A stretch of DNA of 64,000 nucleotides from Trueperaceae bacterium (GTDB taxonomy: Bacteria > Deinococcota > Deinococci > Deinococcales > Trueperaceae), in assembly GCA_965215565.1 (NCBI GenBank), contig CBDCDZ010000004.1:2944001-3008000 (forward strand), written 5' to 3'. Positions 33,424 to 52,836 of the stretch are shown piece by piece (within the stretch, counting starts at the first letter, position 1; every line of letters starts with the position of its first letter). The notes beneath the pieces were generated by a model. That model worked only from the letters and a program-made list of their open reading frames with translations. It made no database searches and was not told where the DNA came from. Position numbers and translations under genes: made by a program.

Positions 33424-34287
33424 ATGCTAGCCAAGGTCATCTCCGCCGCTGTATTAGGTGTAGACGCATTCGAAGTGCAGATTGAGGTGGACATCTCGGG
33501 CGGTCTGCCCTGCGTGATGGTGGTGGGCCTGCCCGACGCCGCCGTGCAGGAGTCGCGCGAGCGGGTGCGCTCGGCGATTCGCAACGCGGGCTTGCCCTTT
33601 CCGTCCAGCCGAATCGTCATCAACTTAGCTCCAGCCGACGTGCGCAAAGAGGGTCCAGCCTTTGACTTGCCCATCGCGCTCGCCGTTTTAGCGGCGCAAG
33701 GGGTCATCCCGCAGGAGCGTTTAGAGAGCACCGTCATCAGCGGTGAACTCGCGCTAGACGGCGCGATTCGCCCGCTCAAGGGAGCCATCAACATCAGCCT
33801 CTACGCGGCGCAAGCGAGCTTAGAGCGGGCTATCGTCCCGCCCGAAAACGCCGCTGAAGCCGCTGTCGTGAGTGACGTCGAAGTCTACGCGCCTAAAACC
33901 TTGTTAGAAGCCGTCGAGTTTTTTCAGGGGCGGAGCTTGCTCACACCCACCACGCCCAAAGAGGTCAGCAGCAGTGAGCAGCACCTCGACTTATACGATA
34001 TCAAAGGGCAAGCCGCCGCCAAGCGCGCCTTGGAGATTTCAGCGGCGGGCGCGCACAACCTCCTGATGAGTGGTCCGCCGGGCTCGGGCAAGACGATGTT
34101 GGCGCGGCGTCTGCCGGGTATCTTGCCCGCACTAACCAGAGATGAAGCCATCGAGGTCACGCGCATTCACTCGACAGCGGGAACGCTCAAAGAGCGTGGG
34201 CTCTTGACCAACCCCGTCTTTCGCGCGCCGCACCACACGATTTCGGATGCTGGACTTATCGGCGGCGGTGTGAACCACCACAATTAA
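33424..34287 (+). pseudogene. comM: ComM/YifB Mg-chelatase-like AAA+ ATPase, 5' part only, interrupted by an insertion
   Basis: VGLPDAAVQESRERV, NLAPADVRKEG..FDLPIA, GPPGSGKTM, RAPHHTISDAGLIGGG, then VNHHN-stop. The expected PGE.SLAH/LFLDE half is absent from the window. Confidence 0.93.
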
Positions 34288-34338
34288 CGATATTCTTTCA
34301 CTATTCCCGTTACTGCTTCCACAAACTCTGGTACTGAC
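34269..34338 (+). repeat. Putative transposon end: TGT terminus plus three TnsB-site-like repeats
   Basis: CCACAATTAACGATATT (34278), TCACTATTCCCGTTACT (34298), CCACAAACTCTGGTACT (34319); period 20-21 bp. Confidence 0.55.
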
Positions 34339-34355
34339 TGTAGTATACTCCTCAG

Positions 34356-36254
34356 GTGGCAGTACCACCAATTAAGGCGATTAAGGAACTCAATAAGGAT
34401 AACGATTTTTTATGGCGTGCCCTCATGTTTGGCGAGGCGCATCTTAATTCAGGTCGGTCTACCGAGCCGCTCATCGACGTTTTCTTCGCGCCGTTAAAGG
34501 GAGAGCCCGAGCGACCGGATGAGGAAGGTTGTACGAACTATAAAGCCACGAGGTTAGTGCGCATTGGAGTAGGACAGCTCCCTCGTGTTCACGTCGGGTC
34601 CGTGTGGCGCGATGGCTTACTACGACCCCATCGGTCCCATAGATACTCGACGAAGCGCTTTAATGCACTCTCCATCGCACCGTGGACGACCTCTGTCATC
34701 CCCTTCGGTCAGAAACTAGGGCGATGGTGGAACACGTTCCATCTCGTTGCTGAAGACTATAAACAGAGCAAAGACTGGTCCAAACTATCCCAGACCAACT
34801 GCGTCGCCGTGTCGAGTCGGGGATGCGAACATAAGTTGATCATCCCGGTGGTTGAGCTGATCCGGTTTTATCATATCCAGACGAGCCGCCTCGCCGTGAT
34901 TGTCTTCACGCCCAATATCTATGACCTCAACGACATATGCAACCTGGAAAAAAGCAAGCCCGTCCGCAGGGAGGGTGACTCGGACGCGAACTACATTCAT
35001 ATGGTCCACCTCAGGCAACGGTTTTATAACGCTGACGCCTGGATCATCGCGAGATGGGTGTATTCGGAGTTTGCTAGGCGCAAAGCGCGGCAAATTCACA
35101 CCTCGCTTATGAAAGCCTCGAACGAAGGCCGTCCTACCTTTCCTGAGACTAGCTTTCCCTTCGTAGGTAAAACTGACCTCCGCGTCAGCGGTAGGTGGAT
35201 TAGAGGGGAAGACAGAGTATGGCGCTTTCTGGTCTACCGCATCCTTGAGTGCAGCGGTCCCTGGGAGTTTAGCGACCTCATGGTAGGGCGCGACAACGAC
35301 GGGCGTAGCGACGGGACTCCCGACGACGACAAACCCACAGCTTATCCTGGTGCACAAAAGACACCTCCCAACGAGGTCGACGAAGACGAAGGGGAAATCC
35401 GTAGCGACGAAGACCCCGACGCCAGCGTCGGTGACTTAGAGGTAGAGAGCGTCCTGAACAACTCGAGGTTCACGCCGTTCAAACACAAGGAACTTATCCG
35501 CGCGCCCAAGGAGCCAACGAAATACCGCAGCCGCAAACGTCCGATGCAGCCGGACGACAAACCTAATTGGAGCACAGGACCAGGAACATGGGGCGGAACG
35601 GAAACGAACCCGGTCGTGTTAGGTCCCGGAGGAGACGAAGTTTCTGAGGAGAAAGAAAAGAAAGAGACGGACGTCGAAGAGGGCAACGGTGCCGGTAAAA
35701 GCGAAAGGCAGAGCGTCCCGCCGTTGCCTGTGAGCTTTGAGACTATCGAGGGTGTTCTCAATATGCTAAGCGACAAAGCATACGGCGTTACGTTCAGCTT
35801 CATCGACCCGTATCGGCGCTCAAATCACCTGGACGCGGAAACGCCACAGGGAGAAACGGAGTCTAGTAATACCACCTTTTTCCCGACGGTAGCCGGTGGA
35901 AAAAAGCGCCGCTGGTCTTTCATCAAACGTAACCCAGACGAGATACGCGAAGCGCTTATCGTAAAACTTACGTTGGCAGAAAGGTCTTATTACCTCTTCG
36001 AGATGAGCCGCCGTCCTACAGAGGAAGGAAGGTACACGATGGCGCTTATCCGCAAAGGTGAGGGCGACGTTCTCGGAAGTTATACTCTGGATGCCATTCT
36101 GCAGACGTGCGTGCTAAACAGAGGGGGATGGCTCCAGGACAACGAATTGAGCGAACTGAGCCGACATTACCTGAAACACACCTCTAAGGACTATAAGCAA
36201 TACGCCGATAGGTTTTATAACCTCATGATCGATGAAAGCATGTGGATGGGGTAG
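34356..36254 (+). CDS. tnsE: TnsE-like Tn7 target-selector protein
   Basis: PVVELIRFY resembles the TnsE PQLELARALF motif; L.VSG...FLV..I...SG block; acidic linker; C-terminal domain with the TnsE_C-like pattern (REALIVKL..YYLFE..GGW..LKH..YADR). Recognised by eye. Confidence 0.62.
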   Translation: MAVPPIKAIKELNKDNDFLWRALMFGEAHLNSGRSTEPLIDVFFAPLKGEPERPDEEGCTNYKATRLVRIGVGQLPRVHVGSVWRDGLLRPHRSHRYSTKRFNALSIAPWTTSVIPFGQKLGRWWNTFHLVAEDYKQSKDWSKLSQTNCVAVSSRGCEHKLIIPVVELIRFYHIQTSRLAVIVFTPNIYDLNDICNLEKSKPVRREGDSDANYIHMVHLRQRFYNADAWIIARWVYSEFARRKARQIHTSLMKASNEGRPTFPETSFPFVGKTDLRVSGRWIRGEDRVWRFLVYRILECSGPWEFSDLMVGRDNDGRSDGTPDDDKPTAYPGAQKTPPNEVDEDEGEIRSDEDPDASVGDLEVESVLNNSRFTPFKHKELIRAPKEPTKYRSRKRPMQPDDKPNWSTGPGTWGGTETNPVVLGPGGDEVSEEKEKKETDVEEGNGAGKSERQSVPPLPVSFETIEGVLNMLSDKAYGVTFSFIDPYRRSNHLDAETPQGETESSNTTFFPTVAGGKKRRWSFIKRNPDEIREALIVKLTLAERSYYLFEMSRRPTEEGRYTMALIRKGEGDVLGSYTLDAILQTCVLNRGGWLQDNELSELSRHYLKHTSKDYKQYADRFYNLMIDESMWMG

Positions 36255-36397
36255 CCCCAGACCGTTCGTTTGCTGCGAGATTACTCCGAAAGCTCCTCAG
36301 ACACTGTTAGTGTAGCCCTTGATCGTTCAGTGTGGAAGGGTTGCCCCCTCATATCGCTAACATACTACCCTTTAACTCATTCTCCCGCCAGACGGCT

Positions 36398-37588
36398 TTA
36401 CTCGTTCTCAAACGCAGTCACTTGAGCGTCTTCATCCGAGTCTATAAAGCGATTTGGGGAATCGAATAGAGCGAGATAAGGTGTGAACCGAAATCTTCGA
36501 TGACGTAAGTTCCCAGTAACTTCTTCTAGCACCCCGACTTTGATCAACTCGTTGATGGCTTTGCTAGCTGTGCCGTAGGAACAATCGAGGTAGTCCTGCG
36601 CAATCTGCACACTGATAATAGGCTGTTTGAAAAGTATGTCGAGCAGTCGTGAAGTATTCGCATTATCGCTTAGAACGAGGCGGAAGTCTTCTCTCATATT
36701 GAGTATCGCGCGAGCGGTCTCCGTAGCTTCTTTGCTTACCTCCTTGACTCCTGTGAGGAAGAACTTCAGCCATCCGTGCCAGTCACCGTCGTTACGGATC
36801 GCAGTGAGCCTATCGTAATACTGCGCCCTATGAGCTTTGAGATAATGGCTTAAATAGAGCAGCGGTTTGGCTAATACTTCTCTCTCGCAGAGAAGAAAAG
36901 TGATGAGCAGTCGTCCTACACGACCATTCCCGTCCGCGAAGGGGTGGATAGTTTCGAACTGCGCATGGGCGAGTCCGCATTTGATGAGTAGCGGAAAAGA
37001 GTCTTGACGATGGAGAAACTTCTCGAGATTGTCGAGAGCTTGATGCATTTCGTAGGGTGGAGGTGGAATAAAGTCCGCGCTGGCAAGACCAGCGCCCGGC
37101 GTCCCAATCCAATTTTGTGTTGTCCGGAATTCACCGGGCTGCTTGTTTCTACCCCTGACACCTGAGAGGAGCTTTTCGTGAATCTCTCTGATGAGACGGA
37201 GGCTTAAAGGAAGCTCTTCAAGGCGCTCCAATCCGTAGTTCATCGCGTTGATGTAATTCACGACCTCTTCCACATCCTGCGGATTTTCTGTCCCATCTTC
37301 ATCTACCTCGAAGCGTAGAACGTCTTCTAACGTGCTTTGTGTACCTTCGATCTGCGAACTCAGAACAGCTTCCTGACGCACATACATAGCAACAAACAAG
37401 TTGGGATTTGGCAGCGTCGAGGTTACGCCGTCAAGTCTAGCTAATGCTCTGTCCGCTAGTGAACTGAGTCGACCTATCTCGGAATCCAAATTTATTGCCA
37501 GATCAGGTGGAAGCGGATCAGGTATAAAAGCGGCATATCCAGTTGGTTGTTTCACATATCGCCCGGATTTTGAAATAAGGTTACTCAC
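36398..37588 (-). CDS. Fic family protein (class II, C-terminal wHTH)
   Basis: Fic motif HPFADGNGRVGR; inhibitory motif SSQIEG; AFIPDPLPP N-terminus. Confidence 0.93.
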   Translation of the reverse strand: MSNLISKSGRYVKQPTGYAAFIPDPLPPDLAINLDSEIGRLSSLADRALARLDGVTSTLPNPNLFVAMYVRQEAVLSSQIEGTQSTLEDVLRFEVDEDGTENPQDVEEVVNYINAMNYGLERLEELPLSLRLIREIHEKLLSGVRGRNKQPGEFRTTQNWIGTPGAGLASADFIPPPPYEMHQALDNLEKFLHRQDSFPLLIKCGLAHAQFETIHPFADGNGRVGRLLITFLLCEREVLAKPLLYLSHYLKAHRAQYYDRLTAIRNDGDWHGWLKFFLTGVKEVSKEATETARAILNMREDFRLVLSDNANTSRLLDILFKQPIISVQIAQDYLDCSYGTASKAINELIKVGVLEEVTGNLRHRRFRFTPYLALFDSPNRFIDSDEDAQVTAFENE

Positions 37589-37697
37589 CTTTCCAGTTTA
37601 TCTCAACTTTTTGAAATAAGACATCTTTGACGTTTACCTTATTTCATATTTTCCTTCTTTTGTGAAATAAGTAAGACTTTTATAGGTGCTTATTTCA
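37571..37697. promoter_or_regulatory. Three palindromic sites TGAAATAAG-N17-CTTATTTCA
   Basis: 37571-37605 (right arm TTTATCTCA), 37612-37646, 37663-37697; all have 17-bp spacers. Confidence 0.75.
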
Positions 37698-37770
37698 CGA
37701 CAGTAAAATAATGTTCTGCTTGAATGGTATTTCTAATGATTATTATTATAATCAGTCTTACGATGAGACA

Positions 37771-38022
37771 GTGGGAACTAAGGACCACTTCACTCTCTAC
37801 GAACGAGCGTTCCTGCGGGCAGTAGGCGCACGCATTGAAATGCTCAGGCATCGACGCGGGCTGGGTTTGGAGGACGTCGCTGCCTATACGGTTCATTCAG
37901 CCGAATGGTTAAGCGGGCTCGAGGCAGGTACACAAGAGCCGAGACTCGACGACCTCTTCCAGATCGCCAAAGCTTTGGGCACCAATCCTGGCAGCTTGGT
38001 CAGTGTCGAAGTCAAGCTGTAG
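37771..38022 (+). CDS. XRE-family HTH protein
   Basis: VGARIEMLR..GLGLEDVA...LEAGTQEPRLDDLFQIAKALG. Start uncertain (ORF track 37711). Confidence 0.75.
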   Translation: MGTKDHFTLYERAFLRAVGARIEMLRHRRGLGLEDVAAYTVHSAEWLSGLEAGTQEPRLDDLFQIAKALGTNPGSLVSVEVKL

Positions 38023-38074
38023 AACTCGGTCAGTTCTCATAGAAGGATAGAGCAACCCATGACACGATAGGGGC

Positions 38075-38326
38075 ATGTCGGAACGTGATTACCAACGTCG
38101 TATGGACCCGGAGTATGAGGCTTACCGCCGCAAGGTCGGGCAGAGGATCAAGGAACTGAGGGAGGACATGAATCTCAGCCAGGAGGCGTTCGGGGAAAGG
38201 GCCGGGCTCAACCGTACGCACGTGAGCTACCTGGAGGTTGCCCGGCAGGACCCGTCGCTTTTAACGCTTTTCAAGGTGGCGAAAGTGTTGGGGATGAGTG
38301 TGAGTGAGTTGCTCGAAGTGGACTAG
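38075..38326 (+). CDS. XRE-family HTH protein (controller-protein-like)
   Basis: GQRIKELR...LSQEAFGERAGLNRTHVSYLE...PSLLTLFKVAKVLG. Confidence 0.88.
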   Translation: MSERDYQRRMDPEYEAYRRKVGQRIKELREDMNLSQEAFGERAGLNRTHVSYLEVARQDPSLLTLFKVAKVLGMSVSELLEVD

Positions 38327-38415
38327 CGGCGAAGACGAAAGATTCACTGTCTGTGATTCAGTCGATAGGTAGACTAGGTGCCGCGAAAGATTTTTCAGCA
38401 CCACAGGACTTCGAC

Positions 38416-39228
38416 ATGATCATAGGCAAAGACTCCCCGTTTAGAAGAATTCCCCTCGAGCTTCATCGCAAGCAGAACATGTTCTTTGATGCCATTCGAG
38501 AAACTGTTGTCATAATCGATGTTAATTATCAAAGGCTGAGTAGAAATTTGTTTCACATGTCAGTCGAGCATGACCCAAGCGTACACGGTGGGTATGAGTT
38601 GGGTCTCTACCAAACCTCCACCGCCTTCTCGGACGCCTGGACCGTTATCGACTACACGAATCGCCTCAGAGGGTTGCTGGATAAGTTACCCGTGGCTAAG
38701 ATAAAGCGGTTCCCGCCCAAGCGTGTTTTCCTCGAAGAGACGGCGGACGTTAAACCGCTACGCAACGGTTTCCAACATCTCAACGAGCATATCAGCAAAG
38801 CTCCGGATGTCACGATGCCAGTATTGGGAGAGTTGAGCTGGTTTGCCCTTGCAGATGAAGAGGGTCGCTTCGGCTACTCATGCGTGATGCCCTCAGGTAT
38901 GCTTATTCCTAATCGCGGGTACTATCCGGTCAATCCTGCTGGCGCTACACTGAATGAGCGCGTCAATCTTGTCACGTTGCGGGTGGAAGACAAAGCGGTT
39001 TGTCTCAGCGATACAGTTGTTGCTGTAACTAAGCTCGTGCGGAGCTTCGAGGAACAGCTCGAGCGCCATCTCAACAAGCACTGGAGTAAAGATGAACCGG
39101 GCACATCCTTCGGCACGAATGTCATGGCGGGGATTCCTTTTGCTCGCGTAGATGAATCATGGCTTTTGCTCTTGCCACCAGAAGAGAAGGAAACTTACTC
39201 ACACTTTCCCTCTATACCCCCCGTGTAG
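38416..39228 (+). CDS. Hypothetical protein with HEPN-like Rx4H motif
   Basis: Helical N-terminal half ending in LRNGFQH. Start uncertain (ORF track 38353). Confidence 0.55.
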   Translation: MIIGKDSPFRRIPLELHRKQNMFFDAIRETVVIIDVNYQRLSRNLFHMSVEHDPSVHGGYELGLYQTSTAFSDAWTVIDYTNRLRGLLDKLPVAKIKRFPPKRVFLEETADVKPLRNGFQHLNEHISKAPDVTMPVLGELSWFALADEEGRFGYSCVMPSGMLIPNRGYYPVNPAGATLNERVNLVTLRVEDKAVCLSDTVVAVTKLVRSFEEQLERHLNKHWSKDEPGTSFGTNVMAGIPFARVDESWLLLLPPEEKETYSHFPSIPPV

Positions 39229-40670
39229 CTGTGACTATCCACCAGTACCCCTGAAGCGTCAAAGAGAGATGCTGTATCCCCACTGTTATTCCACACCGCT
39301 CCACCCGAGTTGGGCACGGTGATGATCTCCTCAGCACTCGCCTGGATACTTGGTAGCGCAAAGCTACGGCCACTTTCGTCCTCAATCGTCCACCCTGAGA
39401 AGTCTACAGACGCTAAAGCTTCAACTTGCACATACTCGTTGCCGTTGTCACTACCTGGCGGGTTGTAATATACGCAGACCACACGGGCTTGCCCGGTCGA
39501 CGGGGGTGGCGAGGACTCTGAAGGCGGCGCGGGTTGCACATCCGGCACGTCCTTCTCCGTCATCGCCTCATAGCTGCCATCGGCGAGGGCTGTGATAGTG
39601 ACCGCCCCATCTCGATCCGTCCGGTAGATGGTCGCCCCTACGCCCCTATAGAGGCTCAGTGCCTGCTCCGTAGGGTGTCCGTAAGGGTTATCTTCTCCAA
39701 CCCCTATTACGACTGTCTCCGGCTCCCAGGTCTGCACGCTCTCCAGGGTATCGCCGTTCTTTGACCCGTGGTGAGACGACTTATAGACCTCTACGCCACG
39801 CAGGTACTCAGGCGTATTCTCCAGCCACCACTCGAACTGCTCTCGCTCGGCGTCCCCTGTCAAGGCCGCTTCGAAGTCGCCGAAGTCGAGCACGACCCCT
39901 ATGCTGTTGCTGTTCCTCCCATAGCTCTCTATCAGCGGGGGCGGGATGATCTCTAGGCTCGCGTCACCTAAGCTGATGGTGCGACGGGTAGGCTCGAGCA
40001 CCTGGCTCTCTGCCTCTTCCACCGCCGCGAGCAGGTCGCGGTACACCCCGGTATCCGTACCCAAGCCGTTGTCCATGTAGAAGCGAGGTTTGTAGGCACG
40101 GATGACCGCGTCTAAGCCACCGATGTGGTCAGCATCGGGGTGGGAAGCGATGACGAGGTCGAGCGTTTTGATACCTAAGGCTTGGAGGTAGGGTAAAGCG
40201 TCGTCGTCCCAGCGCCCGCCGTCGTAGAGTACCGCCTGACCTTCTGTGCCAATCAGCAGGACACTGTCTCCTTGACCGACGTCTAGGAAGTGAATTTGAA
40301 TCTCTCCTACGGCTTCAGGTGCGTCGGGCTCCGGCTCGGTGATGGGATTGTTCTCCGGCGTAAACAGCGCACCAACGCTGAGGTCTTGATTCGCCTCTAG
40401 GGTGCAGCTCGAGCTCACCTGACCTTCACAGGCTCCACTCCAACTATTTATGGTATAGCCCGTATTGGGCACCGCCGTGAGTGTGACTGTGCTGACTTCG
40501 TCTAGCTCGAGCGTACAGCTACTGGGGCAGTCAAGGCTAGACTGAGCGGTGACGCGCCCATTGGCAGGTGGCTCGACGCTCAGCGTGTACGTCTCTGCCT
40601 CGGTCGTGGTGGGCTCTGCGCAGCCACTCAAGAAGAGAGAGCCGACCAGGAGCAACCATAGAGGTCTCAC
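39195..40670 (-). CDS. Lipoprotein: beta-repeat domain + ComEC/Rec2-type metallo-beta-lactamase nuclease + lamin-tail-like domain
   Basis: Lipobox LSG-C; FLDVGQGD, SHPDADHIGG, LTGDAE, HHGS, YGHP, YRTDRDG; C-terminal VWNNSGDTA. Confidence 0.88.
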   Translation of the reverse strand: MRPLWLLLVGSLFLSGCAEPTTTEAETYTLSVEPPANGRVTAQSSLDCPSSCTLELDEVSTVTLTAVPNTGYTINSWSGACEGQVSSSCTLEANQDLSVGALFTPENNPITEPEPDAPEAVGEIQIHFLDVGQGDSVLLIGTEGQAVLYDGGRWDDDALPYLQALGIKTLDLVIASHPDADHIGGLDAVIRAYKPRFYMDNGLGTDTGVYRDLLAAVEEAESQVLEPTRRTISLGDASLEIIPPPLIESYGRNSNSIGVVLDFGDFEAALTGDAEREQFEWWLENTPEYLRGVEVYKSSHHGSKNGDTLESVQTWEPETVVIGVGEDNPYGHPTEQALSLYRGVGATIYRTDRDGAVTITALADGSYEAMTEKDVPDVQPAPPSESSPPPSTGQARVVCVYYNPPGSDNGNEYVQVEALASVDFSGWTIEDESGRSFALPSIQASAEEIITVPNSGGAVWNNSGDTASLFDASGVLVDSHSYTGGIEGKCE

Positions 40671-40930
40671 AGCTCGATATCGCCCTTTGGACCTTTAGGC
40701 AAGTGCTCACGGCGTTCTCTAGCTGTCTCTCGTCTTTTGGCTGTTTCAGTGGTGTCGACGGTGAAGCTCACGCGGCTTGCTTTACCCTTGGACACCGCAT
40801 CTACGTTGAGCCCGTCGCCCTCTCGAGCTTCTTCTGGCAGCCATTCGCGAGGTGCGTTGAAGAGTTCGCCGTCAGGTCTTTCTAAGACAGCCCAGCCGTT
40901 GTCTTCGAAGCGTTCGATGATGAAATGCAT
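40667..40930 (-). CDS. DUF3006-like small protein
   Basis: IIERFE..WAVLE, LPEEAREGD; coupled to the MBL gene. Confidence 0.8.
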   Translation of the reverse strand: MHFIIERFEDNGWAVLERPDGELFNAPREWLPEEAREGDGLNVDAVSKGKASRVSFTVDTTETAKRRETARERREHLPKGPKGDIEL

Positions 40931-41063
40931 AGGATTCAGTGTATATGCTTATTCCCCGACACTCAGGAAATTACTAACTTCGCTACTTCTTGTGACTCGG
41001 ATAAGGAAAGCATGTGTAATTGGGCTCTGGTGTGAAAATCTATATATCTCTAATTTTAGCTGA

Positions 41064-41315
41064 ATGCTTAAATGTTCAAACACTCATACTCCCCACATCA
41101 AATCTTGGCGGTGCTCTTTGCCTCTACCTCTGCAAGACGAAAAACTAGCACAAACCCATAAGCTCAAGCTCGCTCAGGGCTGGAAGCGCGTGGCAACTCT
41201 CCTTACTCCTGAGGAACATCGCAATCTCAAGCTGCGAGCAGTAGCAACCGGAGAGGACATGAGCGATATCTTGCGGGGCCTTGTGCTGCGGTATCTCGAG
41301 GAGAAGCCCTCGTGA
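41064..41315 (+). CDS. Small ribbon-helix-helix-like protein (true start probably further downstream)
   Basis: KRVATLLTPEEHRNLKLRAVATGEDMSDILRGLVLRYL; stop overlaps the helicase GTG. Confidence 0.55.
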   Translation: MLKCSNTHTPHIKSWRCSLPLPLQDEKLAQTHKLKLAQGWKRVATLLTPEEHRNLKLRAVATGEDMSDILRGLVLRYLEEKPS

Positions 41316-44254
41316 TTGGCGACATCGCGTCTTCTCTGTCTCAAGAAACGCTCGAAGTCCCCGTGCTTCCGAACGCACGGCAAACCAATTCCGCTCAAGA
41401 GCAAGCTGTCACCACCACTGAAGGACCGCTCCTTATCATCGCCGGACCCGGCTCGGGCAAGACGTTCACGCTCGTCGAACGCATCGTCCATCTGATTACG
41501 GAGAAGGGCGTCGCGCCAGAAGAACTCTTAGTCGTCACCTTCACAGACAAAGCCGCCGCCGAACTCACCACCCGCGTCTCGAACCGCCTCAGCGAGTGTG
41601 GCGTCAAGTTCAACCTTAACGAGATGTACCTAGGCACGTTTCACAGCCTCTGCCTGCGCTGGCTCGAGCGCTACCGCGAATTCACGCGCTTAAAGCGCTC
41701 CTTTACCCTCTTCGACGAGTTCGACCAGCAATACTTCCTCTACAGCAACCTTGCTGCATACGAAACGCTTCCCAACGCCGAGTTGCTCCTCGGCACGTCC
41801 AGACAGAGCCGTTGGTACAAAAGCCGCAACCTCTTAGGCTGGCTCAACACCGTGAGCGAGGAAGCGCTCGATGTCGCTGAGTTGCAGGCGGCACCCGAAG
41901 CTGAGGTGCGCGTCCTCGGTCAGGCGGCGGCGCTCTACTACCAGCAGCTCGAGGAAGCCAATGCGCTCGACTTCTCGACTATTCAGCGCGAGACACTCAA
42001 CCTCCTGCGCACCTATCCCGAGGTCCGAGGCGAAATCCAAGCTCAACTGCGCTACCTCATGGTGGACGAATATCAAGACACCAATACCATCCAAGAGGCG
42101 CTGCTCATGCTCCTGACCGGGGAGGAGGCGAACCTCTGTGTGGTCGGCGACGACGACCAGGGTCTGTACCGCTTCCGAGGCGCGACCATCCGCAACATCC
42201 TGGAGTTCCCGGAGCGCTTTCCCGACAAGAGATGCACCCAGATCAAGCTCGCCACCAACTACCGCTCGCCTCCTGAGGTCATCGACTTCTGTGGCGACTG
42301 GATGCGTGAGCAGGACTGGACCTACGGTGACCTTAGCTTTCGCTACCCTAAACGCACCCAAGCACGTGAGGGTACCTTCCCGGACACGCCGACGGTGGTG
42401 TCAGTCACCGCTGACCTGAAGCGCTGGCATCAGGAGGTCAAAGCCTTCCTGCACGCACTCCGTGACGAGGGACATCTCACCGACTGGAACCAGGTCGCCT
42501 TCTTGTTCCGCTCAGTTAAGAACAAGAAGGTTCGCGCTTTAGCCGACTACCTCGAAGCGGAAGGCATCCCCGTCCACGCGCCCCGCGCCAACCAGTTCTT
42601 TGACCGTGAAGAGATACGCCTCATGTTGGGTGCGCTGATGTTCCTCTTCCCCCAGTTCCCCCACGTCCGAGCGTGGCGCGACGACGTGCAGCTCGATATC
42701 TGGACCTACTACGACGAGCAGTGCGTGCGCCCCTTCGCGGCGGCGCTACGCCAGCCGGAGAATGCTGACTTACTCGCCTGGGCAAGAACCGTTGCCAAGC
42801 GTCACCTTCAGATGAACGAGAACGCCGACTACGGCTTCGCCGGGCTCTTCTACCAACTCCTGCGTTTCCCGCTCTTCAGCCGCTACTTGGACGAAGAGCT
42901 GCTCAAACGCGAAGGGGCGAGCGACACCCGCGCGATGCGCAACCTGGCGGTCTTTTCACAGCTCCTCAACAAGTTTGAGTACCTCCACCACCTCACCATC
43001 CTGACGAAAGACCACCTCGAGAGCAACCTGCGGACCCTCTTCAACCAGTTCCTGCGCTACCTCAAAGACGGCGGCATCGGTGAGTACGAGGGCGACGAGG
43101 CAAAAGCTCCTTCCGGCAGCGTCTCCTTCTTGACCATCCACCAGGCGAAAGGACTCGAGTTTCCGGTCGTCGTCGTTGGCTCGCTCGACGCTGTGCCGCG
43201 TAAGCAGTACAGCGACTTGGACGAGCGCTTAGAGCCCTATCTCTCGCGCCCCCCGTTTGAGCCGCTCCAATACACCAAGTTCTATGATTTCCGGCGGCTC
43301 TACTACACCGCCTTCTCGCGGGCACAAAATCTCCTCGCCCTCGCCTGCCCGATTAAGGTTGGGACCCATCCCTCCCCCTCGAAATACTTCCGAGACCAGG
43401 TCGAAGCGCTCCCAAGCTGGCGTGACACCTCGCTCGAGCACATTCCCTTAGAGACGATCCGAACAGCCAACCTCAAGCACGACTATTCGTTTACCTCGCA
43501 CCTCTCAATCTTCGAGACTTGCGCCGAGCAGTACCGCTTCTTCCGCGAACTCGCGTTCACGCCCGTGCGCACCAATCCCATCCTCTTCGGAACGCTCGTT
43601 CATCAGACCATCGAGGACATCCACAAGACGGTTTTGCGCGGCGAGGAGCAGAGGCTCAGCGAAACGCAGATTCAAGCTTGGTTCGACACGAACTACGCTT
43701 ACTTATCTAAGAAGGAGCGTGTCTACCTCACCTCGCTCATCAAAGGAATCGCGCTCGGTCATGTGATGCGCTACTACGACCGCTACCGGGGCGACTGGCA
43801 GCACGTGCGCGAGGCGGAGGTGGACGTGTCGCTCGTCAAGGACGACTACATCCTCTCGGGCACTATTGACCTCATCCAGGGTGAGAGAGACACGGTTGAG
43901 ATCGTGGATTTCAAGAGCGAGAAGAAGCCGGATGTGAACCACCCCGATGACCGTGACAAGATCGATCGCTACAGGCGGCAGCTTGACGTCTACGCTCACA
44001 TTGTCGAGGTGCGGACCGGGCTCGAGGTCAGTAAGACGCACCTCTACTACACGGGCGTCGAAAACGGCAACCCGCAGATCAGCTTTGACAAAAACACCAA
44101 ACGCCTAGAACGAACCGTAGAGCGCTTCGGCACGATTGTTCAGCGCATCGAAGACAAAGACTTTCGCATTCCCGAGCGCCCTATCAAGCAGTGCGGAGCG
44201 TGCGACATGCGCCACTACTGCGACGCCAAAAACTGGAGATTTTTAGATGATTGA
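41312..44254 (+). CDS. UvrD/REP (SF1) helicase fused to a C-terminal PD-(D/E)xK nuclease with Cys cluster
   Basis: AGPGSGKT, VDEYQD, VGDDDQGLYRFRGA, TIHQAKGLEF; GTIDLI..IVDFKS; C..., CGAC-x5-C. Confidence 0.92.
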   Translation: MIGDIASSLSQETLEVPVLPNARQTNSAQEQAVTTTEGPLLIIAGPGSGKTFTLVERIVHLITEKGVAPEELLVVTFTDKAAAELTTRVSNRLSECGVKFNLNEMYLGTFHSLCLRWLERYREFTRLKRSFTLFDEFDQQYFLYSNLAAYETLPNAELLLGTSRQSRWYKSRNLLGWLNTVSEEALDVAELQAAPEAEVRVLGQAAALYYQQLEEANALDFSTIQRETLNLLRTYPEVRGEIQAQLRYLMVDEYQDTNTIQEALLMLLTGEEANLCVVGDDDQGLYRFRGATIRNILEFPERFPDKRCTQIKLATNYRSPPEVIDFCGDWMREQDWTYGDLSFRYPKRTQAREGTFPDTPTVVSVTADLKRWHQEVKAFLHALRDEGHLTDWNQVAFLFRSVKNKKVRALADYLEAEGIPVHAPRANQFFDREEIRLMLGALMFLFPQFPHVRAWRDDVQLDIWTYYDEQCVRPFAAALRQPENADLLAWARTVAKRHLQMNENADYGFAGLFYQLLRFPLFSRYLDEELLKREGASDTRAMRNLAVFSQLLNKFEYLHHLTILTKDHLESNLRTLFNQFLRYLKDGGIGEYEGDEAKAPSGSVSFLTIHQAKGLEFPVVVVGSLDAVPRKQYSDLDERLEPYLSRPPFEPLQYTKFYDFRRLYYTAFSRAQNLLALACPIKVGTHPSPSKYFRDQVEALPSWRDTSLEHIPLETIRTANLKHDYSFTSHLSIFETCAEQYRFFRELAFTPVRTNPILFGTLVHQTIEDIHKTVLRGEEQRLSETQIQAWFDTNYAYLSKKERVYLTSLIKGIALGHVMRYYDRYRGDWQHVREAEVDVSLVKDDYILSGTIDLIQGERDTVEIVDFKSEKKPDVNHPDDRDKIDRYRRQLDVYAHIVEVRTGLEVSKTHLYYTGVENGNPQISFDKNTKRLERTVERFGTIVQRIEDKDFRIPERPIKQCGACDMRHYCDAKNWRFLDD

Positions 44255-46112
44255 GCAACCTTTGATTCAGAAATACGATGAGCGCGTGGAAGAGATGAAG
44301 TTTGAGCCCATCAAGGGCTATCCGATGCTGAACTGGCGAGGCAAACGACCTTTCACCAGCACCCAGTATTACCCGGCGCAGATCAAAGAGCGGCACGGGG
44401 AGCCGGTAGACGGTTGGATGAACAAGATTTACTGGGGCGACAATCTTCAGGTCATGAGTCACCTACTCAAGGAGTATCGAGGCAAAGTTCAACTTATTTA
44501 TATCGACCCTCCGTTTGATTCAAAGGCTGAATATAGAAAGGCAATATCGCTTTACAAAAAAGATATACGTAATGAGCTGACAGCGTTTGAGGAAAAACAA
44601 TATACAGATATATGGAGTAACGACGAGTATTTGCAGTTTATGTACGAACGTCTTGTTTTAGTTCGTGAATTGATGTCATCCACCGCAACTATATGGGTGC
44701 ACTGTGATTGGAGAAAGTCTGCAAGTCTTAAATTGATGCTTGACGAAGTTTTTGGCAAGTCACAATTTCGAGGACATGTAGTTTGGCGCAGTATGACATC
44801 GAGTGGCTTTAAAGGAAAAACTAGCTTAGGAAAAAGTCACGATGACCTTCTTTACTACTCTAAGAGCGAGTCAGCTTTTACGTACAATCCAGTTTTGATA
44901 CCCTATAGCAAAGAGTATTTAAGTGAGAGATTCAGTAAAATCGACGGAAATGGAAGACGCTTCAAAGATGAAAAAATAGGTACGGCGACTTCTGAAAAAA
45001 CTATAAAGCGTTTAGAAGAAGAAGATCGAATTTATATTACTTCAAATGGTACTAAGCGAGTTAAGCACTTTCTTGATGAAGCAGAGGGCTATCCAGCAGA
45101 TAATATCTGGACAGATATATCCGGTGAAAACTCGCAATCGAGTGAACAGACAGGCTATCCTACCCAGAAACCCGTCGCTCTATTAAAGAGAATAGTATCG
45201 ATGACGTCAAATCCAGGCGACATAGTCTTTGACTGTTTCATGGGCTCCGGTACAGCCCAAACTGTTGCTATGAAGTTGGGACGCCGTTTTTTAGGCGCGG
45301 ATATCAATCTAGGGGCTATTCAAACAACGACTAAGCGTCTTTTGAACGTAGCTGAATTGCTCGAGCCAGCCGAGCAACAATTTATAGCAGAGGAAACGGT
45401 CCCTTCTATCTACTACACTGGGTTCGAAGTTTATAACGTTAATCACTATGACGTGTTTCGTAATCCTCTAGAGGCGCGAGACCTTCTCCTCGAGGCGTTG
45501 GAGATCAATAAGCTCCCTCAGGGTCATCTCTTCGACGGCGAGAAAAACGGGCGCATGGTCAAACTTATGCCGGTCAACCGCATCGCCACCCGCGCCGACC
45601 TGACCGAGTTGATCAGCGGCTTCAACTATAAAGACCTTCAGAAGCGTCAAAATGAACACCCCACCAAGCCTGTCGAGAAGGTCACGCTCATTTGCATGGG
45701 TCATGAGCCCGACCTTGCTGCTCAGCTCAAAACTGAGATGCATCCCTTCGTCTTAGATGTCGAGGTCGTGGATGTGCTACGAGACAAGAAGGAGCTAACC
45801 TTCAAGCGCGATAGTGAAGCGAAGATCAATGTCGAGAACGGCACGCTTAGTATTGAGCGCTTTTACCCTATGAACCTCTTGCAGAAGCTCAGCTTAGAAA
45901 CTGAGAAGGTCGAGGACTGGCGCGAACTGGTCGAGTCGGTGATGATCGACTGGAACTACGACGGCGTGGTGCTCGAGCCCAAGACGGTGGACGTACCTGA
46001 TAAGAACGAGCTGGTAAGGGGTTTCTATCCCATCCCCGAGGACACTGGCACCATCCGTGTCAAGATCACCGACGTGCTCTCCGAGTCTTTAGAGGTGACC
46101 GTCAATGGCTAA
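44247..46112 (+). CDS. mod: Type III RM-like DNA methyltransferase (Mod, beta class)
   Basis: YIDPPF precedes YPTQKP and DCFMGSGT; overlaps both neighbours by 8 bp. Confidence 0.88.
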   Translation: MIEQPLIQKYDERVEEMKFEPIKGYPMLNWRGKRPFTSTQYYPAQIKERHGEPVDGWMNKIYWGDNLQVMSHLLKEYRGKVQLIYIDPPFDSKAEYRKAISLYKKDIRNELTAFEEKQYTDIWSNDEYLQFMYERLVLVRELMSSTATIWVHCDWRKSASLKLMLDEVFGKSQFRGHVVWRSMTSSGFKGKTSLGKSHDDLLYYSKSESAFTYNPVLIPYSKEYLSERFSKIDGNGRRFKDEKIGTATSEKTIKRLEEEDRIYITSNGTKRVKHFLDEAEGYPADNIWTDISGENSQSSEQTGYPTQKPVALLKRIVSMTSNPGDIVFDCFMGSGTAQTVAMKLGRRFLGADINLGAIQTTTKRLLNVAELLEPAEQQFIAEETVPSIYYTGFEVYNVNHYDVFRNPLEARDLLLEALEINKLPQGHLFDGEKNGRMVKLMPVNRIATRADLTELISGFNYKDLQKRQNEHPTKPVEKVTLICMGHEPDLAAQLKTEMHPFVLDVEVVDVLRDKKELTFKRDSEAKINVENGTLSIERFYPMNLLQKLSLETEKVEDWRELVESVMIDWNYDGVVLEPKTVDVPDKNELVRGFYPIPEDTGTIRVKITDVLSESLEVTVNG

Positions 46113-48684
46113 GGCGATGAACCTAGATTTCACCTTCTTTGCCGAGCTACACCGCTTCTACCAAGAGAAACGCGGCATGATCCGTAAGCATTACCGGGAC
46201 TTGACGAAGCGCTTTCTGGATTACAACGACCCCGAGAACGCGGGCGCGTTCTTGCGGACGCCCCAGTTCGAGGCGCTGGAGATGTACGTCTTCCTCAAGG
46301 AGTACCTAGACAACGCTAAGCTCCACGAGGTCTTCCGCGAGTGGGCGGAGTCCGAAGGTCGTTTCGAGGGACGCAGCCCCTACGTCCAGGGACTCTTTGA
46401 GGAGCGCGAAAGCTATGAGCCCGTCTTCAAGCAATTAGAAGACTTCGCCCGCAGCTACCCGAACTACATCTTCGCCCTGACGATGGGCACGGGTAAGACG
46501 ATCCTGATGGCAACGTGCATCTTCTATGAATTCCTGCTCGCCAACAAGTTCCCTAAAGACCCTCGCTACTGCCACAATGCACTGGTATTCGCGCCCGACA
46601 AAACAGTTCTCGGCTCGCTGCGCGAGATTCAGACCTTCGACATGAGCAAAGTCGTGCCGAGCGAGTACCAAGCGTTCCTCGCCTCGCACATCCAGTTCCA
46701 CTACTTAGACGAGGCGGGCACGAGCCTCAACACCCTGGACGGCTCGCGCTTCAACCTAATCGTCTCGAACACGCAGAAGATCATCCTAAAGCGCCAGACG
46801 AAGGAGAAAGGCGGGGCGGACAAGCTTTTCGAGAGCGGCCCAAGCACTTACGAACGCGGCGGGGTGTGGGACGGTCTGAGCGACCTCTACGACTTCTCCC
46901 AGGATGACACCGCGCTGACCTCCAATCAGCGATTCGAGAAGTTGCGCCGCTTGCCACAACTCGGCGTCTACATCGACGAGGCGCACCACGCCTTTGGCAA
47001 CGACCTTGCCAAGGACATGGGTCTCAAGAAGACCAAGACGAGCCTGCGCACGACGGTGGACGAACTCGCCGCTAACTTAGAAGCAAAAGGGTCTTTCGTC
47101 GTCGCCTGCTACAACTTCACCGGCACCCCATACGTCGGCTCGCAGGTGCTGCCCGAGGTGGTCTACGCCTACGGGCTCAACGAGGCGATTCGGCGCAGTT
47201 ATCTCAAGCAAGTGGCGATCAGCGGCTATAGCAACACCAAGAGCGAGGAATTTGTGCAGCTTGCAGTGGACGACTTCGTTAAACGGACCCAGGGGCTCGA
47301 GCCCGAGGGGATGCGCCCCAAGCTCGCCTTCTTCGCTGCCACCATCGACGAACTGACCCAGGACCTCCGCCCGGCGGTGGAAGAAGCTATCGCTAAGCAC
47401 GGCTTCGACCCGAGCACCATCCTCGTCAATGTGGGTGACCCGAAGAAGACCAGCAATGACGACCTGCGCGAGTTCAACCGGCTCGACACGCCCGCCTCGA
47501 CCAAGCAGTTCATCCTGCTCGTCAACAAGGGGCGCGAGGGCTGGAACTGCCGTTCGCTCTTCGGCGTCGCGCTCTTCCGCAAGCCGAAGTCTAAAATCTT
47601 TGTCCTCCAGGCGACCATGCGCTGCCTGCGCAGCATTGGCGAGGTGCAGCACACCGGGCACGTCTACCTCAGCGAGGAGAACTACCAGATTCTGGAGGAC
47701 GAGTTGCAGCAGAACTTCAGGGTCAGCGTCCAAGAGGTTCAGAAGGCGGGCAAAAGCAAGGTGCGCGTGCCCGTCAAGGTGATGCCGCCGCCCGTCAAGC
47801 TCAAGCTCAAGCGGGTGCGCAGGCTCTTCACCATGCGCGACAAGACGCTTTCCGAAGGGATCGACTTCGAACTTCACAAAGCGGACCGCGACAAGTACCG
47901 GCTCATCCGCTCACAGCAGCAGGGGCTCACGCCGGGCGACAAGGGCGTGCAAAAGGAGGACCTATCCCACCTACGGACGCAGTGTACCTTCACCGCGCTG
48001 ACGCTCGTCGCCGAGGTCGCCAAGTACCTTAACCGCTCACCTATCGAACTCGAGGAGCTGCTGGCGTCATCACGTGAAGGTATGACGACGCTACTCAAAG
48101 CCGTCAACGAGTTCAACGAGCTTCTCTACGATTGGGTGATTCCTCGCCTCTTCGGGGAACTCTACGACGTGCGCACCTATACTGATGATGAGCCTTACGA
48201 GGTCGAACTCATCAAGCTGCCGCCCGCACCTAGAGACCACTACCTCGTGTCGGCGGACGAGGAGCTGGTCGCGCTTCGCAGCGATGTCGGTCCTGAGCAG
48301 GCCGAGAAGAGCTTTCACCTGGACACCTACTGTTTTGACTCCAAACCCGAGCGAGACCTCTTCTGGCAGCTCCTCAACAGTGGCAAGATCAAGAAGCTCT
48401 ACTTCACGGGGATGCTGACCCACGGGCAGACCGACTTCTTCGTGCAGTACATTGATCCTGACTCACACGCCATCCGCTCCTATTACCCCGACTTCCTCGT
48501 TCAGAAAGAGGACGGCACGTATGTCATCGTCGAAGTCAAAGGCGATAACAAAATCGACGATCCCGTCGTTTTGGCTAAGCAGCGTTTTGCCGAGCAGATG
48601 GCGGAGGCGAGCGGGATGACCTATCGGATGGTCAAGGGGAGCGACAGTGCATCAGAGGTCGGCTTATCGCAGACGCTCAACTAA
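46105..48684 (+). CDS. res: Type III RM-like restriction subunit (SF2 helicase + PD-(D/E)xK nuclease)
   Basis: MGTGKT, IDEAHH, REGWN, YYPDFLV...IVEVKG. Confidence 0.88.
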   Translation: MAKAMNLDFTFFAELHRFYQEKRGMIRKHYRDLTKRFLDYNDPENAGAFLRTPQFEALEMYVFLKEYLDNAKLHEVFREWAESEGRFEGRSPYVQGLFEERESYEPVFKQLEDFARSYPNYIFALTMGTGKTILMATCIFYEFLLANKFPKDPRYCHNALVFAPDKTVLGSLREIQTFDMSKVVPSEYQAFLASHIQFHYLDEAGTSLNTLDGSRFNLIVSNTQKIILKRQTKEKGGADKLFESGPSTYERGGVWDGLSDLYDFSQDDTALTSNQRFEKLRRLPQLGVYIDEAHHAFGNDLAKDMGLKKTKTSLRTTVDELAANLEAKGSFVVACYNFTGTPYVGSQVLPEVVYAYGLNEAIRRSYLKQVAISGYSNTKSEEFVQLAVDDFVKRTQGLEPEGMRPKLAFFAATIDELTQDLRPAVEEAIAKHGFDPSTILVNVGDPKKTSNDDLREFNRLDTPASTKQFILLVNKGREGWNCRSLFGVALFRKPKSKIFVLQATMRCLRSIGEVQHTGHVYLSEENYQILEDELQQNFRVSVQEVQKAGKSKVRVPVKVMPPPVKLKLKRVRRLFTMRDKTLSEGIDFELHKADRDKYRLIRSQQQGLTPGDKGVQKEDLSHLRTQCTFTALTLVAEVAKYLNRSPIELEELLASSREGMTTLLKAVNEFNELLYDWVIPRLFGELYDVRTYTDDEPYEVELIKLPPAPRDHYLVSADEELVALRSDVGPEQAEKSFHLDTYCFDSKPERDLFWQLLNSGKIKKLYFTGMLTHGQTDFFVQYIDPDSHAIRSYYPDFLVQKEDGTYVIVEVKGDNKIDDPVVLAKQRFAEQMAEASGMTYRMVKGSDSASEVGLSQTLN

Positions 48685-48749
48685 GAAGGACTAAGATTAC
48701 AAGAGCAGAATGGACCATCGACGCTACATTGACGAGATAAGCTAACACC

Positions 48750-50225
48750 ATGAGCGTACAGGTCTACTTCTCTGACTATTTTCAGATCGACCCTGAGGTC
48801 ATAGAAGAATACGGCGCTTTAGACGTTTCACTCATCAACGACCTCCCCCTGTTCATCGATCCGTTCCTCTTGTTCGAGAGTGAAAAGAAAGAATATAAAG
48901 AGCTCCATCAGGAGCTGATTGACTACGTCATCTTTCTCAAAGACGCTGCGCTCAGCGGACCACTGGCAGAAGCCAGATTCAGGTCATGGTTTTACTTCCC
49001 CGAAGTCAAACAAAATTGGCTTGGGTTTAGCAAAAAGGGTAACCAGGGTGCAGGGCTCGGGAAAGATTTTGCGGAAGCGTTAAGTCGAAATCTAAGGGAT
49101 AGGTTTAGCGACTTTGGAGAGGAATCCGTTTCGCAAAGTCCCCACCTCGAGAAGCTCTGCCTCGTCAAAGAAGGGGTCGGGCGCGACAACATCAGCGACC
49201 TTACGGCTAACATCATTAAGCGCTATCTCTTGGAGTATACGCAGACGTTCGCACAACAGCACCTGCGGTCTGACCAGCGCCGCGCGTTTCCTGTGGATAG
49301 GGTGTCTTTTGACTACAACTTGAAGCGTTGGAAACGCGGGCGCTTCGAACTCCCAGTTTTCAACCGCGACTTCGTCCTGCTCACGCCTCGCGATATTCTG
49401 ACGAAAGAAGACACGTGGATTAACCGCACCGACTTGGGTGAATCGTTCGTAGAGATCGCCACCTCACTTCCTAATCCTCAGCTACGACAAGAGCTGAGCG
49501 ACATGCTTATCCAGGCGCTCAGGGCGAACCAAACTGTTTCTAAACGCGATGTGCAAGAGATGGCTACAGACCTAACCCTAAAGTACCCTGAGATTCTCGA
49601 TCACTTCATTCGATGGAAAGAGGAGCACGGGGAGAAGGCGAAGGCGATCAGTGCTGAGCGCGTCGGTGAGGTCGAGGACGTGTTCATTCGTGCAGTCAAA
49701 GGCTTCGTCGAACAGTTAGATAGCGCTACCGAGTTTTACCAAACTAGCGACGCGACCTTCGGTGAAGCGCTGAGAAAAGCACATTTCCTGAAAGACGTGA
49801 TTGAGAACAAAGACGGCTACCGCCTCTTCTACCAAGGTAACAAGCCCATCACAAGAGAGAGCGACCTACAGATTCTCTTTCGCCTCACTTGGGAGGGAAC
49901 CTCCTCCGACGTGAACCGGGAGGTGAACAACGGTCGTGGACCTGCTGATTTCACGGTTTCACGCGGCAGCCGCGATAAAACTGTTGTGGAGTTCAAGCTC
50001 GCCTCCAACAACAAACTGAAACAAAACCTTCAGAACCAGACGAAGATTTACGAACGGGCGAGCAACGCGAAACGCAGTGTCAAGGTGATCGTTTATTTCA
50101 ACAGAGCTGATCTGGCTAAAGTGCAGCGCGTCCTTGAGGACTTGAAGATGGTTGGTGATGAAGGCGTCGTGCTTATTGATGCAACAAGCGATAAACCTTC
50201 CGCTTCGAAAGCAAAGGAGTCGTGA
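48750..50225 (+). CDS. Hypothetical protein with C-terminal restriction-endonuclease-like motif
   Basis: REVNNGRGPADF...VVEFKLA...QTKIY pattern. Confidence 0.65.
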   Translation: MSVQVYFSDYFQIDPEVIEEYGALDVSLINDLPLFIDPFLLFESEKKEYKELHQELIDYVIFLKDAALSGPLAEARFRSWFYFPEVKQNWLGFSKKGNQGAGLGKDFAEALSRNLRDRFSDFGEESVSQSPHLEKLCLVKEGVGRDNISDLTANIIKRYLLEYTQTFAQQHLRSDQRRAFPVDRVSFDYNLKRWKRGRFELPVFNRDFVLLTPRDILTKEDTWINRTDLGESFVEIATSLPNPQLRQELSDMLIQALRANQTVSKRDVQEMATDLTLKYPEILDHFIRWKEEHGEKAKAISAERVGEVEDVFIRAVKGFVEQLDSATEFYQTSDATFGEALRKAHFLKDVIENKDGYRLFYQGNKPITRESDLQILFRLTWEGTSSDVNREVNNGRGPADFTVSRGSRDKTVVEFKLASNNKLKQNLQNQTKIYERASNAKRSVKVIVYFNRADLAKVQRVLEDLKMVGDEGVVLIDATSDKPSASKAKES

Positions 50226-50247
50226 AGCTGTGCTCGCACAGCTTCAC
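50222..50247 (+). terminator. Hairpin closing the RM operon
   Basis: GTGAAGCTGTG-CTCG-CACAGCTTCAC; no U tract. Confidence 0.5.
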
Positions 50248-50315
50248 CTAAGGGGGTGATTCTTCATGTCGCACCTCTATTTGGGTTACATAATACCCCA
50301 ATTTACCCTTTTCGG

Positions 50316-50344
50316 TTGACGCTTTCTCAAAAAAGTCCTATTAT
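50316..50344 (+). promoter_or_regulatory. Sigma70-type promoter (leaderless transcript)
   Basis: TTGACG-N17-TATTAT, 7 nt before the ATG at 50352. Confidence 0.7.
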
Positions 50345-50351
50345 CTAATGT

Positions 50352-51110: not shown

Positions 51111-51111
51111 T

Positions 51112-52275: not shown

Positions 52276-52536
52276 ACGCCCCTTTTGTTGTAAGAATATT
52301 CGATTGTCAGGCTTCTGTCACTGCCTCTAAACGCCCAATATGGTCAGCGTCTGGATGAGACGCGATAACGAGGTCTACTTGTTCGACACCGACGCTGCGC
52401 AGATACTCAAGCACTTGGTCGTCTCATCCACCGTTCCTCTTATGATTGCCATACCTATAAGCTAAAGAAACCTGTCTTACAGAACGCTGGCTTGAGACCT
52501 ACTCTTTGCAGCCAGCGTAGTAGTGGCTGACCCCGG

Positions 52537-52836
52537 CTACTCCATCTCGGACTTGAACACCCTCCGACTATCCCGCTCTAGCGACCGCGTTAGCTCCTCT
52601 TCGGTAGGCGTACCCATCAACTCCTCTACAGGCGTCTCCAGGACCGCAGCCAGTTTGAGCAGCGTGTCCAAGGTCGGGTTGAACTTGCTCCGTCCCCCCT
52701 CGAACTCCTGATAGCGCCTCAAGGACATCTCGGAACGCTCAGCTACGTCATCTTGGCGCAGCCTGCGTTTCAGCCGTATCTGCCTAAGCCGCCAGCGAAT
52801 AACCCGTTTGTAAGCGTCGTTGTCATCGTCGGGCAT
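52537..52836 (-). CDS. XRE-family HTH regulator
   Basis: LRQIRLKRRLRQDDVAE...YQEFEGG...NPTLDTLLKLA. Confidence 0.85.
   Translation of the reverse strand: MPDDDNDAYKRVIRWRLRQIRLKRRLRQDDVAERSEMSLRRYQEFEGGRSKFNPTLDTLLKLAAVLETPVEELMGTPTEEELTRSLERDSRRVFKSEME

Follow-up and report, generated by a model that had tools for sequence, protein, structure and literature searches.

A Tn6022-Related Transposon with No Detectable TnsF in comM of a Trueperaceae Bacterium

Introduction

In Tn7 and Tn6022, TnsC joins the transposase to a target-bound selector, the distance between the insertion and the sequence bound is roughly fixed, and a second route, to mobile DNA, is provided by TnsE. We describe here a related element that splits comM, a gene for a Mg-chelatase-like helicase, in a Trueperaceae bacterium (genome G000; assembly of 4.49 Mb, 99.99% complete). 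It begins in a stretch of 64,000 nucleotides, positions 2944001–3008000 of contig C4 (the window), and ends beyond it; coordinates below are window positions unless prefixed with C4.

The closest described system is Tn6022, the AbaR backbone of Acinetobacter, which combines TnsABC, TniQ, TnsF, and a distal TnsE. Published accounts treat TnsF as its essential comM selector and a short TniQ as the sign of a needed partner, and report no efficient comM transposition by TnsABC and TniQ without TnsF (PMC10293859, PMC11014353); the region bound by TnsF is the Walker B codons of comM (PMC10293859). TnsD-type tails are proposed target readers, and Tsy, a tyrosine-recombinase element with TnsF, uses the same target gene (PMC10293859). 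CRISPR-associated transposons (CASTs) of type I-B1, also Tn7-like, reach comM and comEC through CRISPR RNAs (crRNAs) specified by att spacers (PMC9881144), and Deinococcus-Thermus elements have been placed in a Tn5053/Tn6022 clade (bioRxiv 2021.08.23.457393). In the portions of this literature covered here, comM targeting by TnsF or crRNA is reported and no TnsF-free, guide-free route to this site turned up, though figures, supplements, or older surveys may list such elements; a word search for Deinococc and Trueper in three supplements of PMC10293859, the locus file in part, gave no match.

Results

The element and its target

The insertion spans 46,339 bp, from 34269 to C4:3024607 (C4:2978269–3024607), and is defined by the following features.

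33424..34268, + strand: comM 5' part, codons 1–282 (Pfam PF13541, PF01078); 99% identical to the intact comM of a relative, G001
34264..34268, + strand: target-site duplication GGCGG, left copy (5-base flank overlap on the G001 gene; empty-site contig in run X4)
34269..64000: in-window part of the element
34269..34335, + strand: left transposon end, TGT terminus, with putative TnsB sites 34277–34294, 34297–34314, and 34318–34335 (matrix from the far end; same registers in a sister element)
34356..36254, + strand: tnsE-like gene, 632 aa from the first GTG, distal and on the strand opposite to the core operon (profile match to Tn6022 TnsE)
C4:3019345–3020964, − strand: tniQ, 539 aa, open; core, winged helix, and PD-(D/E)XK fold
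C4:3020951–3021889, − strand: tnsC, 312 aa, open
C4:3021890–3023788, − strand: tnsB, 632 aa, open
C4:3023797–3024495, − strand: tnsA, 232 aa, open
C4:3024607: right end, TGA terminus, with putative TnsB sites 9, 53, 75, and 106 bases in
C4:3024608–3024612: GGCGG, right copy (same 5-base overlap)
C4:3024608 to 3025258, + strand: comM 3' part

Homology to comM, including the Pfam ChlI/Mg_chelatase match, ends at 34268 (last residues ...ISDAGLIGGG), and the foreign DNA opens with TGTGAACC. The gene restarts in frame at C4:3024608, 16.6 kb past the window end, and when both flanks are mapped onto the intact G001 gene (protein 99% identical) they overlap by exactly 5 bases, GGCGG. An earlier note, written from the window alone, had put the end of comM, the start of foreign DNA, and a GGCGG duplication at these same positions and had pointed to relatives with an intact comM; the comparison with G001 bears it out. 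Its label of a probable Deinococcota genome is likewise consistent with the analysis. The insert has a GC content of 0.557, against 0.581 for the chromosome. In run X4, from another study, a contig represents the empty site, joining comM 34126–34268 directly to the 3' sequence. A left end and tnsE in diverged form are present in run X3, also from another study; at least 31 comM letters were required for bridging, and the X1 and X3 contigs, which cross the left junction with 26–27 such letters (26 in X3), are not counted. Run X1 is possibly the source sample, and none of the runs listed as holders is RNA. In X1 (34101–37397), contig depth falls from ~26–30 in comM to ~11 in the element, and a contig breaks at 34268. 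Occupied and empty alleles in mixture could give this pattern, though depth is no gauge of cell share.

Two outcomes that the earlier note had named as fatal to its reading, an att core beside an integrase and a misassembly, are not seen. Misassembly is ruled out because the ends match, comM resumes in frame, and the flanks overlap by 5 bases; among the open reading frames (ORFs) scanned, the only integrase domains are those of IS3 and of TnsB (DDE).

The ends are those of a Tn7-like element: TG...CA, arrays of putative TnsB sites starting near base 9, and the 5-bp duplication. Read inward, the far end is TGACAACC; of 26 bases compared with the near end, 20 are identical. The earlier note had expected ACA, GGCGG, and the remainder of comM downstream; GGCGG and the in-frame remainder are there, but the far end begins TGA, not TGT. 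Its claim of repeats about 9 bp into the near end proved sound, in that a matrix built from the four far-end sites only, which lay outside the DNA available to that note, ranks near-end positions 9, 29, and 50 as its top three. Each of these has a score reached by 2e-6 to 7e-6 of chromosome positions, and the three-site sum was matched at one of 8,786,912 positions, the spacing having been taken from the earlier note's observation; the sister element described below has sites in the same registers.

Library matches place PF08722/PF08721, Mu-transpos_C/rve, PF05621, and PF06527 in one operon, and the products are 37% (TnsA), 35% (TnsB), 37% (TnsC), and 26% (TniQ) identical to those of A. baumannii Tn6022. 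The note had seen no tnsA, tnsB, tnsC, or tniQ in the window and had supposed the core machinery to be at the far end or lost; all four genes do lie outside the window, intact at the far end, but a TnsE homolog had been overlooked inside it, at 34356–36254. This 632-aa product has no Pfam or NCBIfam match, and a profile of 23 homologs aligns with A. baumannii Tn6022 TnsE at an hhalign probability of 94.9% (E 4.8e-8, 266 columns, N-terminal half only). A distal tnsE is described for Tn6022-type elements (PMC10293859). By its gene content the element is best described as an intact 46.3-kb TnsA/TnsB/TnsC/TniQ/TnsE transposon related to Tn6022; its core frames are intact, and it may be active.

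The distance from the element end to the PxPGE proline codon of comM is 12 bases here and 11 in A. baumannii NZ_CP077849.1, in the same orientation, so the site agrees with that of Tn6022 within 1 bp. In both, the tnsA end adjoins the Walker B-coding 3' part of comM; here the Walker B codons lie ~56 bases from the duplication, on the tnsA side. Both also have a 5-bp duplication, a separate tnsA, a TniB-type TnsC, and a tnsE that is remote from the core and lies on the opposite strand, close to the left end. The element differs from Tn6022 in lacking TnsF, in a 539-aa TniQ with a fused domain unrelated to TnsF, in its TGA right end, and in a cargo of defence and RHS genes rather than drug resistance. 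Like Tn7 (TnsD to glmS, TnsE to plasmids), it combines a TnsABC core with TnsE and a single large protein of the TniQ family, and it has a 5-bp duplication and TG...CA ends that carry arrays of TnsB sites (putative here); however, its target lies inside comM and the gene is destroyed, tnsE stands outside the operon, and the TniQ tail has no TnsD Pfam match. Unlike type I-B1 CASTs, it has no Cas genes, array, or guide-like match (ORFs scanned), and unlike Tsy it has a DDE transposase, terminal repeats, and a duplication, with no TnsF and no tyrosine recombinase among the ORFs scanned.

Search for TnsF

The comM-targeting Tn6022/AbaR elements cited in the earlier note agree with this one in general type and site, but not in TnsF. 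Of the genes that it suggested looking for at the far end, TnsA/B/C and TniQ were found, TnsF was not, and no Cas gene appeared among the ORFs scanned. No TnsF was detected in the genome by tblastn with the A. baumannii protein (E<0.05), by an HMM of A. baumannii and G129 TnsF (E<=1), or by a second query, these queries being drawn from two lineages only; as a positive control, the A. baumannii query finds the TnsF of G129, another genome of the phylum, at 4e-43. On the tniQ strand no plausible partner frame or remnant follows tniQ, the next gene being a lipoprotein on the other strand. Two candidates were rejected: ORF 50352–51110, the best in-element phmmer match (E 0.014), is not recovered by the TnsF HMM, and the TniQ tail scores 0.2% against TnsF by hhalign. 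Since the genome yields no TnsF, in an operon with tniQ or elsewhere, the element is Tn6022-like but not a member of that family, from whose short adaptor TniQ (~370 aa) it also departs with its fused two-domain tail. The comM att site with the tnsA end beside the 3' part, and the distal, opposite-strand tnsE, are as in the family.

A simple repeat finder gave no CRISPR array in the element, and the ORF scan, confined to the main ORFs, showed no Cas effector. The longest exact match between the target flanks and either this element or its sister is 12–14 bases, none of it guide-like, and the host's two CRISPR-like arrays contain no near-exact match of at least 18 bases to the comM site.

The TniQ tail

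Folded alone with 74 sequences, the 195-aa TniQ tail gave a model of pLDDT 92, made up of a winged helix of MarR type (best Z 7.9, rmsd 3.8, 69 aligned) and a part with the PD-(D/E)XK nuclease fold (NucS Z 10.1, rmsd 2.5, 97 aligned). The tail alignment has no conserved D...(D/E)xK (acidic/lysine) catalytic residues, and the nuclease domain is therefore presumably dead. The full-length fusion is kept in four other database proteins (55%–66% identity); in the phylum it occurs only in G000, twice, among the 80 of 364 genomes that match TniQ (one genome, G327, counted in the denominator only). Outside fusions, the domain is mostly a stand-alone protein (115 matches). The three such cases checked lie in islands: a serine-recombinase island at comM codon 350 (G202), a tyrosine-integrase island (G267), and one (G210) assigned by its layout, the same as in G202. 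This habit of standing alone in integrative elements makes passenger capture possible. The tail family has no Pfam match below E 0.001, no significant PDB sequence match, and no Foldseek match at E<=0.001; in the Atlas there is only a lead, a score of 0.89 against a cluster of which 11% of the members have Replic_Relax, and the fused tail reaches nothing above 0.78.

Relatives within the phylum

From the 364 genomes, 62 were picked for split, weak, or missing comM matches. Elements sit at comM codon 282 in G140 and G161 (both junctions seen) and in G113 (3' junction); in G153 the contigs break at a shared 5-mer, and the link to its tns contig is by inference. All four have TniQ architectures other than that of G000, and none of the four has a detectable TnsF (control positive). 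G129, at the same codon, carries a true TnsF, in two frames, and its offset to the PxPGE proline codon is 11, as in TnsF-bearing A. baumannii.

A second Tn7-like comM site lies near codon 402–408 and is occupied near codon 406 in G087, G081, and G086 (L070–L074; also G038); three of these elements coincide in exact position, and their TniQs have an HTH-like tail. In G049 comEC is split with a GAGGG duplication, and in G085 an element adjoins comF. A competence-only rule is opposed by the elements of G072, G051, G058, and G026, whose sites are within or next to unrelated genes (in three cases the gene was named by eye); several flanks are without a named gene. Splits of comM near codons 320 and 345–350 are common as well in the phylum, occurring in many genomes (L127, L128, L136, L140), and serine recombinases were found in the scanned codon-350 case (G202) and in an island in comEC of G085. 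Because comM and comEC also hold serine-recombinase islands, competence genes are in this phylum a crowded hot spot for several element types. In G167 (L103), where comM is interrupted near codon 50–55, a distant Tn7-like operon lies next to the gene.

A sister element of 52,120 bp on the same chromosome (C4:3661479–3713598; L056–L058) splits comEC and has the same layout, with TnsB 54% and TniQ 58% identical, the latter over core and tail. Its tnsA and tniQ are each broken into two frames, and its apparent duplication against intact relatives is only 4 bases, GCGC. The genome-wide search for comEC covered ten other genomes. The two target sequences have no evident likeness. The elements pair in trees of TnsC (98/97), TniQ (100), and TnsB (99). 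They have cargo blocks of 78%–86% identity in common, and the sister also has a gene resembling a lanthipeptide synthetase (by eye) and an ABC transporter. In the TnsB tree (19 rows, from which the broken G129 and two long branches had been removed; codon-282 group named after earlier trees had been seen), the approximately unbiased (AU) test rejects the codon-282 elements as one clade (p 1.1e-5) and gives p 0.045 against pairing with A. baumannii TnsB; the backbone is unresolved.

Relatives in other phyla

A TniQ scan of genome contigs confirmed 169 stretches, of which the best 80 were kept; no TnsF was found in any of these 80 loci, up to 6 kb on each side. In 16 of the 80, comM is split at codons 276–283, in Pseudomonadota, Bacteroidota, Acidobacteriota, and Binatota. 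Fourteen have the tnsA end beside the 3' part, one is seen from the tnsE side, and one is reversed at the same comM position (L199:2474). For 13 of the 14, offsets to the PxPGE proline codon are 12 (six), 11 (three), 9 (three), and 17 (one). Genome-wide searches found TnsF in none of the 16 genomes (completeness not given; control positive), which brings the TnsF-negative genomes with a comM-282 element to 21: G000, four in its phylum, and 16 outside.

Nine of the 16 TniQs measure ~340–404 aa and therefore have no long tail, and in eight of these nine loci the 200 bases next to the tniQ stop contain no start of a long frame on the same strand. The other seven (L141, L143, L147, L149, L156, L170, L199) measure ~525–556 aa with another tail. 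That of L141 resembles by eye the catalytic domain of a tyrosine recombinase in degenerate form, but as a set these tails do not match TnsF. The long tails of ten outside TniQs were rejected both as TnsF (hhalign 0.5%) and as the G000-type tail (0.9%). The fused domain of G000 was not found in the TnsF-negative comM relatives examined and is therefore not what they share.

The other 64 of the 80 loci show no comM, comEC, or comF, some being truncated, and a set of 53 flank frames, taken from 42 of these loci, is scattered; the automatic end finder mis-called several known ends, and these flanks are approximate. In a 93-row tree of the TniQ core (a quick tree with a midpoint root and no shuffle control, and without L172, which is probably a duplicate), the comM state occupies deep branches on both sides of the root, with seven changes. 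Metagenome scans for relatives with context, and a genome scan with TnsC, gave no matches.

Cargo and other features

36398..52275: defence-type cargo comprising SoFic, a UvrD helicase-nuclease, a type III-like methylase and restriction subunit, an RmrA-like HTH-peptidase, a metallo-beta-lactamase-fold surface protein, and ORFs without an assigned family (Pfam, PADLOC scans)
56658..64000, on to C4:3010050, + strand: large RHS-type cargo protein in an open frame, its tip bearing HINT and EndoU nuclease domains of the interbacterial polymorphic-toxin type (Pfam PT-HINT, EndoU_bacteria)
C4:3010455–3019270: IS3, orphan HINT-EndoU, S8 peptidase, secretin

The type III-like restriction subunit (46105–48684) ends in a TnsA-like endonuclease domain (PF08722, E 4.5e-7), and is cargo rather than the element's tnsA. 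The RHS protein is ~3,100 aa long, and the orphan HINT-EndoU module (L025:4816–5734) follows it and IS3; together they form a predicted interbacterial toxin array carried as cargo. The chromosome has two more TnsA/TnsB-like clusters, at about C4:829200 and 1896200, and a third, distant tnsA-tnsB-tnsC-tniQ cluster at C4:1548901–1557900.

Discussion

The comM element is real and intact, with the site and layout of Tn6022 but without its TnsF. How it finds comM is a matter of graded likelihood. The TniQ core, possibly with TnsC, is the likeliest reader because the core is what TnsF-negative comM elements share, and we give an even chance to the proposal that it recognizes the comM site itself in the wider family. 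The core would then read the conserved part of comM that codes for GGG-x-x-PxPGE...LFLDE. Partners or tails, such as TnsF in Tn6022, the winged helix and dead nuclease here, and HTH or recombinase-like domains elsewhere, would be lineage-specific helpers adding DNA affinity or precision. TnsA and TnsB would excise the element, and the split comM should cut the host's ability to replace it by natural transformation. A broader form, which we hold tentatively and at somewhat below an even chance, is that a cross-phylum, Tn6022-related family finds comM with four proteins, a ~340-aa TniQ core serving as selector without a TnsD-type tail, TnsF, or guide RNA. TnsF would be a late addition of one lineage, and sister elements would retune the selector among comM, comEC, and comF, disabling two of these genes in this genome.

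Several observations weigh against these proposals. TnsABC and TniQ of Tn6022 are inefficient at comM without TnsF (PMC11014353, PMC10293859); a derived 60-row clade of the TniQ tree with the same short core has no comM insertion and scattered flanks; the sister, whose TniQ is 58% identical in core and tail together, occupies an unrelated sequence in comEC; the tree has a midpoint root and an unresolved backbone; and the completeness of the 16 outside genomes is not given.

It is unlikely that the fused winged-helix and dead PD-(D/E)XK domain reads the sequence. TniQ would in that case be a one-piece selector like TnsD and would have converged on the Tn6022 site, other lineages using tails of their own. 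Conservation of the full-length fusion in four other proteins, the modelled MarR-like winged helix beside a nuclease fold stripped of its catalytic set, the rejection of the comM-282 elements as a single TnsB clade, and the role proposed for TnsD-type tails (PMC10293859) all suit such a selector. The same tail, however, is found on the sister in comEC, nine of the 16 comM relatives have no long tail, and the domain usually occurs by itself, the cases checked being in integrative elements.

We consider it rather improbable that TnsF or another partner guided the insertion and was then lost, is supplied in trans, or has diverged too far to detect. TnsF is essential for Tn6022 (PMC11014353, PMC10293859), is present at the same site within the phylum in G129, and was sought with queries from two lineages only; yet loss would have had to occur in all 21 TnsF-negative genomes while tnsA through tniQ of the comM element stayed intact, no frame or remnant follows tniQ, and the offsets range from 9 to 17, whereas both TnsF elements give 11.

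Loose targeting, by the TnsE route, a host protein, or DNA structure, with copies in competence genes persisting since transformation cannot remove them, would account for the several positions in such genes (comM ~282 and 406, comEC at two, comF) and for relatives in unrelated genes. Survival alone, however, does not explain why 19 measured elements of several phyla fall within 9 bp of a gene 1.5 kb long, with the same orientation in nearly every case (only L199 is reversed), and we think this explanation improbable. RNA-guided targeting, through a guide in the element or host CRISPR machinery, is very improbable: crRNAs do take CASTs to comM and comEC (PMC9881144), the sister elements switch targets, and the host has two CRISPR-like arrays, but neither array, flank match, nor Cas effector of the required kind emerged from the scans described above.

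An intact comM element without TnsF, together with 20 further genomes in which TnsF was not found, provides a sharp test of whether TniQ alone reads DNA, and could offer a smaller site-specific integration system. The comM and comEC sisters on one chromosome, with TniQs 58% identical, are a natural pair for asking what sets target choice, and they are in keeping with the view that shutting down natural transformation benefits mobile elements.

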